Virus record (IMG/VR): IMGVR_UViG_3300032233_001678
Location: 1-41,371 of that record
Length of the DNA stretch: 41,371 nt
Direction: 5' to 3' (one strand)
From: a virus
Lineage: Duplodnaviria; Caudoviricetes
Part shown: positions 1-36,014 of the stretch, piece after piece
How positions within the stretch are numbered: position 1 is the first letter of the stretch
Layout of the letters: each line of letters starts with the position of its first letter
Position numbers and translations under genes: made by a program
Notes under the pieces: generated by a model
The model's input: only the letters and a program-made list of their open reading frames with translations
Database searches by the model: none
Told to the model about the DNA's origin: nothing

Positions 1-378
1 GAAACTAATGGTACTATAGTAATAGATGTTAAGTTATTTAATATGTTAGATCAAATCAACTGCTCACCTAAATTATCTAATTCAGGTATGACTGATAAAC
101 AACGTATTGTACCAGAGGCAATTGAGCGTATTAAACAACACAAAAACTACCAATTTAAGTTCGTTATTAGCACCGAAGACGATGTATTGGAATTATTCCG
201 TGACTTCGTAGAACCATTTAAAATACCGCTTAAAAACGTTGTTTGTATGCCTGGTTTAGATGATGCTGCTGATTTTGAAGAGCGTACTCGATTCGTAATG
301 GAAATGGCTAAGAAATATCGTTTCCGTGGTTTAACTAGATTACATATTGCTGCTTGGAATAAAACATTAAATGTATAA
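1..378 (+). CDS. queE: 7-carboxy-7-deazaguanine synthase QueE-like radical SAM protein, C-terminal part (5' truncated by window)
   Basis: Frame 1 is open from base 1: ETNGT...CSPKLSNSG...FKFVI...RLHIAAW. These are QueE/NrdG-like motifs, and folE lies nearby. Confidence 0.85.
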   Translation, partial: ETNGTIVIDVKLFNMLDQINCSPKLSNSGMTDKQRIVPEAIERIKQHKNYQFKFVISTEDDVLELFRDFVEPFKIPLKNVVCMPGLDDAADFEERTRFVMEMAKKYRFRGLTRLHIAAWNKTLNV

Positions 379-379
379 T

Positions 380-475
380 ATGGAAATGTTAATTATATTA
401 GGATATGTTTTTATAGCTTTTTTAGCTGTATTTGGAGCAATAGATGTTATTAAACAAATTAATAAAATAAAATAA
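380..475 (+). CDS. 31-aa single-TM small protein
   Basis: MEMLIILGYVFIAFLAVFGAIDVIKQINKIK* exactly fills the gap between queE and the next ORF. Confidence 0.6.
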   Translation: MEMLIILGYVFIAFLAVFGAIDVIKQINKIK

Positions 476-476
476 T

Positions 477-836
477 ATGTTACAAACATCAATGTGGACT
501 TGCCAGTTCTGTGGTAAGGACACTTCAAACGTAGATTACGATTATTTAAATGGTTATGATCATTTATCTTGTGCTTTAAATGCTGAATTCAAGGCTAGAG
601 CAGATGAATATGATCATTGTATAGTATGTGGTGTAGAAACAGCATATAAACGCTCTACTCATGTAGACATGAGACACGGTTATATTGAAGGTGCAGGCCA
701 ATTATGTCCTAATTGCTACAGTAGAGGAACAGAACACGGAGCTATAGCAGTAGACTATAACATCATTTTAGGAACTCCAAACGATCAAGAGTTGGGAGCC
801 AAAGTAAGGAAATTATATTGGGAAAATAAATTATAA
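477..836 (+). CDS. hypothetical protein with Cys/His zinc-finger-like motifs
   Basis: CQFC...HLSC and CIVC...CPNC motifs. Confidence 0.65.
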   Translation: MLQTSMWTCQFCGKDTSNVDYDYLNGYDHLSCALNAEFKARADEYDHCIVCGVETAYKRSTHVDMRHGYIEGAGQLCPNCYSRGTEHGAIAVDYNIILGTPNDQELGAKVRKLYWENKL

Positions 837-839
837 AAA

Positions 840-1472
840 ATGGAATTATTAAAAAAATCAAATGGTAGTTTAGCTCGTACACCAAAAGAGATTGAGCAAA
901 TGATTGATAAAGCAGCTAAAGCATACGGAAATTTTCTTAATGCAGTAGGATTTGACTACACAGCTGACAGACAAACAGTAGATACACCTCGTCGTGTGGC
1001 TAAAGCATGGTTAAAAGACTTAATCGTAGGATCAGTTAGTGATGAACCAAATATTACAGTATTCCCTAATGATGAAGGGTATGATGGATTAGTAATTCAA
1101 TCAGGTATTCCTATTGTTAGTATGTGTGCTCACCACAATTTAGCATTCACAGGTTATGCTACTGTAGCATATGTTCCTGCTGAGAACGTTATTGGTTTAA
1201 GTAAATTAAATCGTATTGTTGAATGGTTTGGACGTAGACCTCAAATGCAGGAATCATTAACAACACAAATCCACGATTATATTGCTGACAAAATGGTATG
1301 TGAGTCAGTAGCAGTTAGTATTGCTTGTAAACATACATGTTGTTCACATAGAGGTATTAAACACGGTTCTGTAATGACTACAAACAAATTCAGTGGTGTG
1401 TTTATGGAGAAAGAAAATTTAATTAGAGAAGAATTCTTACACGCGATTGAAGTAAACGGAACAAAATTTTAA
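840..1472 (+). CDS. folE: GTP cyclohydrolase I
   Basis: DTPRRVAKAW, SMCAHH, IGLSKLNRIV, RRPQMQE and HTCCSHRG motifs. Confidence 0.95.
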   Translation: MELLKKSNGSLARTPKEIEQMIDKAAKAYGNFLNAVGFDYTADRQTVDTPRRVAKAWLKDLIVGSVSDEPNITVFPNDEGYDGLVIQSGIPIVSMCAHHNLAFTGYATVAYVPAENVIGLSKLNRIVEWFGRRPQMQESLTTQIHDYIADKMVCESVAVSIACKHTCCSHRGIKHGSVMTTNKFSGVFMEKENLIREEFLHAIEVNGTKF

Positions 1473-33616: not shown

Positions 33617-33835
33617 ATGGCACAGTATTTCCAAGTAAAAGTACAGTTTATCAACGAAGATAATAAAAAACAAAGTGTTGCATATTTAGTCGACGCAATG
33701 TCAGTTACAGAAGCAGAATCTAGAACAATTGAATATTTAACTAATCAAGGCGAACAAACCTTTGAAGTTAAAGCAGCAAGTGAATCTAAAATCGTTCATG
33801 TAATTGCAACTCCAGAAATAGCTCCTATCGACTAA
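33617..33835 (+). CDS. DUF4494-like small protein
   Basis: YF.VKV....YLVDAMSVTEAE....F.V....ESKI..V. The stop codon lies inside tRNA-Glu. Confidence 0.7.
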   Translation: MAQYFQVKVQFINEDNKKQSVAYLVDAMSVTEAESRTIEYLTNQGEQTFEVKAASESKIVHVIATPEIAPID

Positions 33836-33892
33836 GGGCTAGGTCATCACCCTTTCACGGTGGTAATACGGGTTCGAATCCCGTTGGGAGTA
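33821..33892 (+). tRNA. tRNA-Glu (TTC)
   Basis: Acceptor GCTCCTA/TGGGAGT; anticodon arm TCACC-CTTTCAC-GGTGG; T arm ACGGG-TTCGAAT-CCCGT; no encoded CCA. Confidence 0.92.
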
Positions 33893-33895
33893 CAA

Positions 33896-33997
33896 GGTTG
33901 ATTGGGACGTATCCTTTAACTGTAGGAAGGGCGGATACATTCGGTTAGTAATGCCAATCATAAAAGTAGATGTCCACGCACCCATCTTCTACTTTCC
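33896..33997 (+). ncRNA. unclassified structured RNA A
   Basis: TGATTGG/CCAATCA encloses GTATCC/GGATAC; a second stem AAAGTAGA/TCTACTTT follows. GC-enriched and noncoding. Confidence 0.6.
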
Positions 33998-34006
33998 TAA
34001 ATTTAA

Positions 34007-34130
34007 AAACGTTGGCTGTGAAGAACGTTTCAAATATAAGCAGGACCATTAGAAACGATATCTAATTCTAGTGGTTGGTGGTTGGATGAGTATCGATGAC
34101 TGCAGCCTCTTGAATACTCCCACCACTGTA
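34007..34130 (+). ncRNA. unclassified structured RNA B (possible kissing loop)
   Basis: Stems AAACGTT/AACGTTT, ACCATTAGAA/TTCTAGTGGT, TGGTGG/CCACCA and GAGTAT/ATACTC; loop GGCTGTG is complementary to loop TGCAGCC. Confidence 0.55.
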
Positions 34131-34132
34131 AC

Positions 34133-34205
34133 GCCTTGCTAGCTCAGTTGGTAGAGCAGCTGATTTGTAATCAGCAGGTCTGCGGTTCAAGTCCGTAGCG
34201 AGGCT
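34133..34205 (+). tRNA. tRNA-Thr (TGT)
   Basis: GCCTTGC/GCGAGGC acceptor; AGCTCAGTTGGTAGAGC D arm; GCTGA-TTTGTAA-TCAGC; GGTTCAAGTCC. Confidence 0.95.
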
Positions 34206-34209
34206 CAAA

Positions 34210-34312
34210 GCGGAGTCGTAAACCGCCGACCATAAGACTAAATCCCAACCCATGCATGGGTCGTTTAAGGTAACACCTTGGAAGGGACACGACCTAGAGA
34301 TGGTGCTAGGTT
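34210..34312 (+). ncRNA. unclassified structured RNA C (possible pseudoknot)
   Basis: GCGG/CCGC with loop AGTC pairing to downstream GACT; also CGACC/GGTCG, AAGG/CCTT and ACCTAG/CTAGGT. Confidence 0.5.
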
Positions 34313-34316
34313 AAAC

Positions 34317-34401
34317 GGAAAGATGGCAGAGTGGTTGAATGCACCGGTCTTGAAAACCGGCAACTGTAACAGGTTCTGGGGTTCGAATCCCTGTCTTTCC
34401 G
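34317..34401 (+). tRNA. tRNA-Ser (TGA)
   Basis: GGAAAGA/TCTTTCC acceptor with G73; CCGGT-CTTGAAA-ACCGG; long variable arm; GGTTCGAATCC. Confidence 0.95.
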
Positions 34402-34415
34402 CAAAATAAAAAAAT

Positions 34416-34625
34416 ATGAAAAAAGAATTGTACGACATGCTTATGTCATCAGCTGTAGCTGAAAAATCGAAAGCATTATTAAGTTTAGATTTATTATCTA
34501 ATCACGCAGTGGGAATTGGTGATCATTCAACAAAAGACTTCTATAGTAATGCTGAAGAAGCATTACAAATGTTAGTTGATGCTGATGATAAGATTGAAGC
34601 ACTTGAAAAATACTTTAAAAAATAA
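34416..34625 (+). CDS. conserved phage hypothetical protein
   Basis: AVGIGDHS...A.D..EAL.KYF motif. Confidence 0.75.
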   Translation: MKKELYDMLMSSAVAEKSKALLSLDLLSNHAVGIGDHSTKDFYSNAEEALQMLVDADDKIEALEKYFKK

Positions 34626-34629
34626 TTAT

Positions 34630-34851
34630 ATGTTTATTGCTTATTACATTATTTGTATTATTTATTGTTTCTATCAACTAAACAAAAAGTACAAAACAAG
34701 AGGATTAGATTATGCATCTCCAGAAATGGATGCAATAATGGTTTTAATTATGGCTTGGGTTTTAGCTCCAGTTGACGTATCTATAACCTGGATTAGAATG
34801 GTTAAAGAAGCTGAAGAAGCTAAGCGTAGAAGTAACAATAGATGGGTTTAA
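34630..34851 (+). CDS. small 2-TM membrane protein
   Basis: MFIAYYIICIIYCF...AIMVLIMAWVLAPVD; start placed at ATG 34630. Confidence 0.65.
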   Translation: MFIAYYIICIIYCFYQLNKKYKTRGLDYASPEMDAIMVLIMAWVLAPVDVSITWIRMVKEAEEAKRRSNNRWV

Positions 34852-34854
34852 AAT

Positions 34855-35010
34855 TGTAGGGTGGCGGAAATGACGGCAGTCAAGGTAGACGTGCCCTCTC
34901 GTCTAGGGGGTGCTGATAAGAGATAGATATAAGATATGGGTTGACCACAAAGCCGGCTTAGTTGTCTTATATTGAATCGCAGCGTGCTGGTTCGATTCCA
35001 GCCCCTACAG
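34855..35010 (+). ncRNA. 156-nt tRNA-Asp-like RNA (GTC) with D-loop hairpin insert and approx. 75-nt variable arm
   Basis: Acceptor TGTAGGG/CCCTACA with G73; T arm GCTGG-TTCGATT-CCAGC; anticodon arm CCCTC-TCGTCTA-GGGGG; variable region 34911-34985. Confidence 0.8.
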
Positions 35011-35012
35011 CA

Positions 35013-35313
35013 AGTTGCTGTTCTTTAACATATAGGAGAAATAAATTATGGAAATACTATCATTCGTTTTAGGGATAGCGTCTGTAGTAGTTATTGCTAT
35101 TGCAATAGTTGCTGTTTATGCTTTCGTTAAGGTAAGACAAGTAAAACAAGAACTACAAAATACTCAATTAACATTGAGTACCGAAATTGAAAATGTGCAT
35201 CGAGTAATACATGATGAAAAAATGAATATGTATTCATCAATCGACTCACGTTTGGACAAATTGGAATCTAAATTAACTAATAAAAAATAAAAATTAGTTA
35301 AAGAACAGCAACT
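35013..35313. repeat. 17-bp perfect inverted repeat flanking ORF 35048-35290; the left arm is boxA-like
   Basis: AGTTGCTGTTCTTTAAC (35013-35029) and GTTAAAGAACAGCAACT (35297-35313). Confidence 0.9.
35048..35290 (+). CDS. single-TM coiled-coil protein
   Basis: N-terminal hydrophobic helix and IDSRLDKLE; a rare SD-like AGGAG lies upstream. Confidence 0.75.
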   Translation: MEILSFVLGIASVVVIAIAIVAVYAFVKVRQVKQELQNTQLTLSTEIENVHRVIHDEKMNMYSSIDSRLDKLESKLTNKK

Positions 35314-35328
35314 AAAATATTTATCACT

Positions 35329-35652
35329 ATGGCATGTCATTGCATAACATTAAAAGATCAACGTGAGTTTCTTCAATTAATGAAGGATCGGGATAGTGAT
35401 TTGATTCTTAAAATGGTTAAATGTGTACTTAGCGCATATAAGCGAGATAAAAATAAAATGGATATATTTGATATCACATTCAAGGATAAGAGTGGAATGA
35501 TATTTACCATCGAAAAATCGCAGTATGCTGAATTATTATCGAATTGCTTAAACGATTTAGCTGCAATTGAAGAATATGAACTGTGTGCTGATATGAAGAA
35601 AATAATTGACAAAAAGTCAAAAAAATATGGGGATGCCTTGGAATTGATTTAA
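35329..35652 (+). CDS. hypothetical protein with C-terminal UVR-like motif (paralog of 31928-32245)
   Basis: L..IEEYELCADMKKII. The stop codon lies inside the tmRNA 5' end. Confidence 0.7.
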   Translation: MACHCITLKDQREFLQLMKDRDSDLILKMVKCVLSAYKRDKNKMDIFDITFKDKSGMIFTIEKSQYAELLSNCLNDLAAIEEYELCADMKKIIDKKSKKYGDALELI

Positions 35653-36008
35653 TTGTAGAGGTAATACCACACGTAGACAAAGCATGAATGTCTTTAAATA
35701 CTTGCGAAACAATAACCGTAGAATTATCTACTATGACCTTCGCTGACTTAATGTCATTCGTTGGTGCTGACGAGTACGCATACGCTGCTTAGTCACAATC
35801 GGGTGTAACATCCTAGGAACAGAAGTTACAAAAATGTTTTCTTAGTTATGTCAAAACTAAGTGGTGGTAACTGGTACTTAACTGTACGGCCCTTACTGAT
35901 CAGCTTAAAATGTAGATCAAATTACTGATCAGCTTGCAGATCTAAACGTGTGACACGCTGGTATAGCTGTCTCTATTAAAGACACGAGTTCGAATCTCGT
36001 CATCTCCA
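35629..36008 (+). ncRNA. ssrA: tmRNA
   Basis: GGGGATG...GACACGAG-TTCGAAT-CTCGT-CATCTCC-A with G3:U70; internal tag ORF 35718-35792 ends ...EYAYAA*. Confidence 0.92.
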
Positions 36009-36014
36009 CAAGAT

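Follow-up and report, generated by a model that had tools for sequence, protein, structure and literature searches.

A 156-nt element on the plus strand of a 41,371-nt stretch of viral DNA (the window), located at 34855..35010, belongs to a conserved family of tRNA-shaped RNAs that has both phage-type and bacterial copies. We lean narrowly toward this RNA being a non-decoding carrier for the conversion of Asp to Asn.

The window represents a 41-kb piece of a T4-like phage genome and encodes a DNA polymerase (35% identical to its best cultured match), a clamp loader, GroEL, and glycosyltransferases. The element lies in a plus-strand cluster (33821..36011) with tRNA-Glu(UUC), tRNA-Thr(UGU), tRNA-Ser(UGA), and a tmRNA, and was neither called by ARAGORN nor matched by any Rfam family, RF00005 included, in searches up to an E-value of 10. 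Positions 34780-35080 were present letter for letter in the DNA run with the best match, from which the window may originate. The runs with related sequences were labeled as lake, freshwater, or river metagenomes, and those with small shares were not counted as habitat evidence.

The tRNA-shaped gene comprises 156 nt to the discriminator base, G73, and is followed by CAA, as are the ordinary tRNAs of the window. Specifically, the acceptor stem has 7 bp (34855..34861 pairing with 35003-09), in which U1-A72 and G2-C71 are invariant, and its 3′ strand with G73 spans 35003..35010. The D arm (34864..34892) is of the tRNA-Leu type, with a 3-bp stem, A15, G18G19, and an extra base at 20a (in our numbering), and in comparison resembled that of a GAG-anticodon tRNA. 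It holds an optional hairpin of 4 bp with a GGCA loop (34871..34882), variable in length and sequence. The anticodon arm (34894..34910) presents the loop UCGUCUA (34899-34905), with C33, GUC (34901-03), U37, and A38, and the T arm (34986..35002) has 5 bp and a canonical loop. Between them, the 75-nt extra arm (34911..34985) is built of a 4-bp stem (34912-15/34980-83), a conserved purine-rich internal loop (34916-25/34974-79), and an 11-bp stem that includes two G-U pairs (34926-36/34963-73). Its tip contains a near-invariant core motif (34938..34948), with GACCAC in 51/51 phage-type and 12/17 bacterial copies, and a perfect 10-nt palindrome (34950..34959) with a predicted self-duplex of -18.7 kcal/mol; no hairpin was predicted for the isolated tip.

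The original prediction, made from the letters alone, had correctly placed the acceptor and T arms, GUC, G73, the D-loop hairpin, C33, U37, and a ~75-nt arm with 4-bp and 11-bp stems. It had missed the first pair, U1-A72 (G1-C72 in bacterial tRNA-Asp), and the tRNA-Leu type of the D arm. Its label 'tRNA-Asp-like' is apt for the anticodon and G73, but not for the Asn-type first pair or the Leu-type body. The D-loop insertion, while present in the window copy, is not part of the core, being missing in locus L126 and most bacterial copies and ranging across the phage-type copies from none to ~30 nt; C33 is likewise real and proved to be a phage trait (51/51 phage-type vs 2/17 bacterial copies). 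The window sequence alone folded modestly (z -1.94 vs shuffles, 7/200 of which folded equally well) into a minimum-energy structure other than the cloverleaf, so that the evidence for structure is comparative.

To define the family, a neighboring protein was used as query, returning 80 loci; the RNA was found in nine of these and in one pattern match. A search pattern with no constraint on the anticodon arm or the center of the extra arm then recovered 27 viral loci and at least 119 metagenome loci, the latter from 50/64 parts of the metagenome collection. From 147 pattern matches, 76 without a paired anticodon stem or without a T loop were discarded, and of the 71 that had both, one with a cut 5′ end was dropped, giving 51 distinct copies. 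We use 'phage-type' as a label for these 51, the metagenome contigs among them not being individually shown to be phage. Neither an exact 27-nt pattern in viral contigs (0 matches) nor blastn against 50,697 phage records (short fragments only, covering at most 18% of the query) revealed relatives.

Across the 51 phage-type copies, 98.9% of cells paired, and 20/35 pairs changed on both sides, with all seven helices represented. None of 500 shuffles matched this, controls slid along the alignment paired at 38-53%, and RNAalifold recovered the same helices from the alignment. All 51 copies had the loop Y-C-GUC-U-M, U1-A72, G2-C71, G73-C74, and an arm of 75-85 nt; A38, which the window copy has rather than C38, was present in 16/51. 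A loop-to-arm pseudoknot (GUCU with GAGAY) was considered and ruled out, since many copies have GAAAU with the loop unchanged. A perfect palindrome of at least 8 nt occurred at the arm tip in 50/51 phage-type vs 1/12 bacterial copies. These palindromes came in several different sequences and were present in 25/26 distinct tips (shuffled mean 0.9, maximum 7), which fits intermolecular pairing and a possible dimer contact. Palindromes also arise by fold-back mutation; they were seen as well in several of the D-loop inserts and in one element nearby.

Other non-coding segments of the phage genomes also appeared structured. A conserved element 3′ of tRNA-Glu (33894-34005), composed of a stem with a variable insert and then a near-invariant hairpin, had eight distinct relatives among the fetched loci and no Rfam match. 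A two-hairpin segment lay 5′ of tRNA-Thr (34040-34128; two distinct relatives, nothing convincing in Rfam), and a structured segment with a 14-nt perfect palindrome at 34248 lay between tRNA-Thr and tRNA-Ser (34210-34312; three distinct relatives). In one subgroup, a further structured-looking stretch was located immediately 3′ of the RNA (L010:3388-3480). The tag peptide that ARAGORN assigned to the phage tmRNA (35629-36011) ends in ADEYAYAA vs ANEYALAA in a relative, G155. Additionally, QueE-like and GTP cyclohydrolase I genes, together with a PTPS/QueD-like gene in the relative (window 43-1472 and L492:5833-6300), likely belong to a 7-deazaguanine DNA-modification pathway, for which no connection to the RNA was seen.

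The relative G155, a complete phage genome of 179 kb, encoded five tRNAs, a tmRNA, and the giant RNA, without tRNA-Asp or tRNA-Asn. Pth, ligase, aminoacyl-transferase, and splicing-nuclease Pfam matches were absent from 146 of its 155 ORFs, a scan that left out eight ORFs of >700 aa and one overlapping a tRNA/tmRNA, with ORFs of <110 aa not called. As G155 has no recognizable partner enzyme, the phage RNA would rely on host enzymes. GatB or a class II synthetase was found in 0/5 related phage records, and an Asn-rich phage proteome was not seen: at 6.1% of the residues encoded by 52 ORFs of the window, Asn was unremarkable.

The family extends to bacteria. A covariance model applied to 151 genomes from the phylum of a Chitinophagaceae genome gave long matches (111-214 nt) in at least 14, a lower bound given that 19 candidates were scored per genome; G001 itself had no long copy, and the next-best matches were class II tRNAs of 84-92 nt. 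The pattern search, run on 80 of the 151, was positive in nine, one of them new, for a total of 15 RNA-positive genomes, in which 17 distinct copies keep the cloverleaf (18/35 pairs compensatory once the copies were aligned to the model). Arm lengths run from 40 to 141 nt, and the anticodon is GUC in 15/17 and UUC in 2/17, both UUC copies being in G135; U33 occurs in 14/17, C33 in 2/17, C38 in 17/17, and a purine at 37 in 0/17. ARAGORN and Rfam called 0/15 bacterial loci. A GTDB scan using the pattern with the phage loop returned 120 loci from 8/64 parts, none with a cloverleaf; it missed the bacterial copies because most have U33. Three genomes had two copies: G039 (L384:1200-1697) and G143 (L385 and L395), with very different arm lengths (123 and 141 nt; 90 and 71 nt), and G135, in which tandem short copies with arms of 40-41 nt and a UUC (Glu) anticodon adjoin an AsnC-like gene (L386:1279-1390 and L386:1501-1611). 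These tandem copies may represent a relaxed variant or a form for Glu-to-Gln conversion.

Beside the RNA, 120-240 nt away, 8/14 genomes had a divergent Lrp-family gene detected by HMM. The best model was PRK11179 AsnC (E 1e-44 to 3e-50), at 152-170 bits compared with at most 88 for other models, although these scores fall below the model cut-off of 227. A motif check added G043 and a second contig of G059, bringing the AsnC-like neighbor to 10/15 RNA-positive genomes; it was missing in 5/15. In E. coli, asnC and asnA are laid out divergently, and the bacterial loci share with that unit an AsnC-like gene that points away from its neighbor, the neighbor in E. coli being the asparagine synthetase A gene and here the RNA gene. 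PMC8707732 describes AsnC as an activator of asnA whose action Asn dampens.

We compared the gene content of the 15 RNA-positive genomes with that of the first 65 pattern-negative genomes in handle order, AsnA and GlnRS being searched in the first 40 of the latter. The RNA-positive genomes encoded GatB (15/15), AsnRS (15/15), GlnRS (13/15), and GatA (5/5 tested), with AsnA in 0/15 and AsnB over the cut-off in 0/15 (weaker AsnB-like matches in 13/15). RNA-negative genomes had GatB in 55/65 and AsnB in 8/65, and over all 80 genomes neither the link between the RNA and GatB (15/15 vs 55/65, p 0.19) nor that with AsnB (p 0.34) was significant. AsnRS scores separated 23 genomes, which we infer to be Bacteroidia, that formed one branch in a quick AsnRS tree (support 100); the 18 of them that were tested also fell on one side of a branch in a quick AspRS tree (support 97). 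Within this clade, 14 genomes had the RNA and GatB without AsnB, and nine had neither the RNA nor GatB, an agreement of 23/23 with a nominal p of 1e-6, for a clade picked post hoc and with no tree correction. AsnB was present in seven of these nine (one interrupted by stops), and the nine were distributed over four positions of the quick tree. Among the genomes beyond this clade, one was RNA-positive (G124), and 55/56 RNA-negatives encoded GatB.

At the AspRS position that is His in 5/5 genomes without AsnRS, which we take to mark non-discriminating enzymes, RNA-positive genomes had Phe (11), Leu (2), or Lys (2), and His in 0/15. The same His was also missing in 11/15 RNA-negative genomes bearing GatB and AsnRS, and our literature search found no confirmation of the signature. 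Eleven genomes (G004, G008, G009, G013, G014, G018, G019, G023, G024, G025, and G028) combined AsnRS and GatB with an AspRS without this His; AsnA, over-cut-off AsnB, and a copy of the RNA were not found in them, and in 10 of the 11 the covariance model returned normal-length tRNAs only. The first pair of tRNA-Asn was uninformative as a discriminator, U1-A72 being present in 5/5 RNA-positive and 5/5 RNA-negative genomes.

Considering both groups of copies, U1-A72, G2-C71, and G73-C74 were present in 51/51 phage-type and 17/17 bacterial copies, GUC in 66/68, and a purine at 37 was absent from 68/68. PMC9976931 lists G73, G34, U35, C36, and C38 as AspRS determinants and U1-A72 as the amidation determinant, and reports that G1-C72 matters to E. 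coli AspRS. PMC1635274 shows that amidation hardly depends on the anticodon, an Asp anticodon on tRNA-Asn lowering it just twofold, whereas U20A, an extra base at 20a, costs about tenfold. The RNA has the U1-A72 of a GatCAB substrate, but its Leu-type loop has A at 20a (in our numbering), where such substrates have no extra base. It shares G34, U35, C36, G73, G2-C71, and, in most copies, C38 with bacterial tRNA-Asp(GUC), and differs in U1-A72 in place of G1-C72, a class II body, a pyrimidine at 37, and C33 in phage copies; the short variable loop, U33, and purine 37 of tRNA-Asp are replaced in the window RNA by a 75-nt arm, C33, and U37. With class II tRNA-Leu (Rfam RF00005) it has in common the D arm, A15-U48, and a long extra arm, yet it has G73 rather than A73, a GUC loop, an arm 3-10 times longer, and no RF00005 match. 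The allo-tRNAs and selC* tRNAs (PMC5389517) are also irregular, long-armed, and missed by annotation, some with GUC and some in phages; they are 8/4 or 9/3, in contrast to the 7/5 fold of the giant RNA (51/51) and its far larger arm, and the RNA thus has none of the 8/4, 9/3, or 8/5 folds of the tRNA-Sec/allo-tRNA/selC* branch.

The closest functional parallel is the indirect Asn pathway, in which a non-discriminating AspRS and GatCAB act on tRNA-Asn (PMC1635274, PMC4206432). The RNA shares U1-A72 and G73 with this pathway, and the host set of AsnRS, GlnRS, and GatCAB without AsnA/AsnB matches Bdellovibrio, Thermus, and Deinococcus. It differs in its Asp anticodon, Leu-type body, non-decoding loop, giant arm, and AsnC-like neighbor, and its product, unlike that of the pathway, could not pass directly to the ribosome. 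PMC4206432 also reports that in Bdellovibrio a single AspRS and GatCAB produce Asn on ordinary tRNA-Asn, and notes the GatCAB plus AsnRS/GlnRS gene set in Bacteroidetes, ascribing it to ordinary tRNA-Asn.

In the carrier mechanism that we propose, the RNA would be processed and given CCA like a tRNA, and host AspRS would charge it via G34-U35-C36, (C38), G73, and G2-C71; as these determinants are present on the RNA, even a discriminating AspRS could use it. Host GatCAB would then amidate Asp-RNA via U1-A72. Ribosome exclusion would come from C33, the giant arm, and the pyrimidine at 37, and is required here: once charged with Asn, an RNA that carries GUC would misread Asp codons. Asn would be released by an unspecified route and loaded onto tRNA-Asn by AsnRS. 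In bacteria, the AsnC-like regulator would turn the RNA on at low Asn, taking the role of asnA in E. coli. The phage, in a host whose identity we infer, would use the RNA to raise Asn supply where the host has no other route, and the palindromic tip may pair two molecules. Charging, amidation, ribosome exclusion, Asn release, and regulation are all proposed steps, and the reason for the phage to carry the RNA is less certain than the role of the bacterial copies.

The expectation that the RNA is not an ordinary decoder is borne out by the missing purine at 37, C33 in phage copies, and the giant covarying arm. Among the three roles offered with it, the best fit is the aminoacyl carrier for non-ribosomal chemistry, specifically one for Asp-to-Asn conversion. 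Y RNA (YrlA) and the tRNA-like domain of tmRNA are permuted or anticodon-less tRNA modules; a Y-RNA-like scaffold found no support, as there is no Rfam match and the cloverleaf is full and unpermuted. A pure phage decoy fits poorly because bacterial assemblies carry the family beside an AsnC-like gene. Against the carrier itself stand the extra base 20a, A38 in the window copy, the missing G1-C72, the two UUC copies in G135, and the fact that GatB without the RNA is the rule outside the 23-genome clade. Because tRNA-Asn keeps U1-A72 and Bdellovibrio uses ordinary tRNA-Asn, the RNA is not strictly needed, and it is mainly this sufficiency of ordinary tRNA-Asn in Bdellovibrio (PMC4206432) that keeps our confidence from being higher.

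An intron-containing tRNA or a decaying pseudogene is extremely improbable. ARAGORN in relaxed intron mode does call an intron at the element, but the resulting anticodons are inconsistent across homologs (Ile, Asn, Ala), and removal of the arm would leave the anticodon loop abnormal. In RNA libraries X15 and X17, gapless contigs run from one end of the element to the other. In X20, 34874-35001 is covered by pieces that extend over the two insert boundaries and terminate in adapter, and the sequence just outside has no cover; X19 did not cover the element. The eight runs examined (six of them RNA runs; contigs only) showed no joint within the element. Such contigs cannot show strand, ends, or level, and DNA may be present in these libraries, so this evidence is weak. 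The arm covaries and spans 40-141 nt around fixed motifs, and neither a ligase nor a splicing nuclease was matched among the 146 scanned G155 ORFs. Neither the spliced insert nor the random decay that had been named as refuting cases was seen. An odd but working decoder of GAC/GAU codons, for Asp or for Asn as regulated misreading, would account for the intact 7/5 acceptor-T helix, for U33 in 14/17 bacterial copies, and for a complete relative, G155, that has no ordinary tRNA-Asp. We consider it very improbable, given a purine at 37 in 0/68 copies, C33 in all phage-type copies, an arm of up to 141 nt, and D-loop inserts of up to ~30 nt.

SerRS does not read the anticodon, and the conservation of GUC and C38 speaks against an RNA charged by SerRS through its long arm and G73 on a Leu body, which would serve, like GUC allo-tRNAs, as a missense tRNA or serine donor. 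This reading, which also leaves the AsnC and GatB links unexplained and meets a 7/5 rather than an 8/4 or 9/3 fold, appears quite improbable, even though A73-to-G73 can switch Leu to Ser identity (PMC9976931) and GUC is common among allo-tRNA anticodons (PMC5389517). It is also unlikely that the phage has repurposed the RNA to inhibit, or act as a decoy for, anticodon nucleases, AspRS, GatCAB, or TGT, with C33 and the self-pairing tip as adaptations; both are strongly skewed to the phage-type copies (51/51 vs 2/17, and 50/51 vs 1/12 for a palindrome of at least 8 nt), and the RNA is located among phage tRNAs and a tmRNA. Yet the phage copies retain every pathway mark of the bacterial ones, no link to defense was found, and the bacterial family would still need a separate explanation. 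A regulatory or scaffold RNA of the Asn pathway, which would bind AspRS and/or GatCAB, or sense Asp/Asn by its charging state, and so tune the ordinary tRNA-Asn route, is a minority possibility. It has the same AsnC-like neighbor and GatB link in its favor, agrees with the U1-A72 kept by tRNA-Asn, and would make sense of invariant arm motifs that resemble a protein-binding surface; a pure binder, though, needs neither the processed-type 3′ end nor the determinants of both enzymes, which are kept in 68/68 copies.

Returning to the carrier, we offer tentatively, as an account somewhat less likely than not, that a widespread Bacteroidota lineage makes free Asn on a dedicated RNA cofactor that replaces asnA under AsnC control. 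This chimeric tRNA would look like Asp to the synthetase and like Asn to GatCAB, and be ignored by the ribosome, its giant arm having a release or assembly function; lake phages would have captured the RNA and made of it a palindrome-paired dimer that drives host Asn supply.

We found no description of such an RNA in the literature surveyed, a set with few subscription papers and no supplements; the supplementary files for PMC5389517 and Table S1 in PMC4206432 could be relevant to this claim of novelty. Seen as a modified form of tRNA-dependent Asn synthesis and a non-decoding tRNA, the RNA would become categorically new, a novel route to an amino acid, were it to release free Asn. Even should the proposed mechanism fail, the family stands as a set of strongly conserved, tRNA-shaped RNAs in which a large insert is folded, and such a design could be tested for tRNA scaffolds that carry cargo or dimerize. 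If the mechanism is true, it would explain why many Bacteroidota keep GatCAB despite having AsnRS and GlnRS and no asparagine synthetase; a step of amino-acid biosynthesis would then take place on an RNA wholly overlooked by annotation tools, and the phage copy would be an auxiliary metabolic gene made of RNA.
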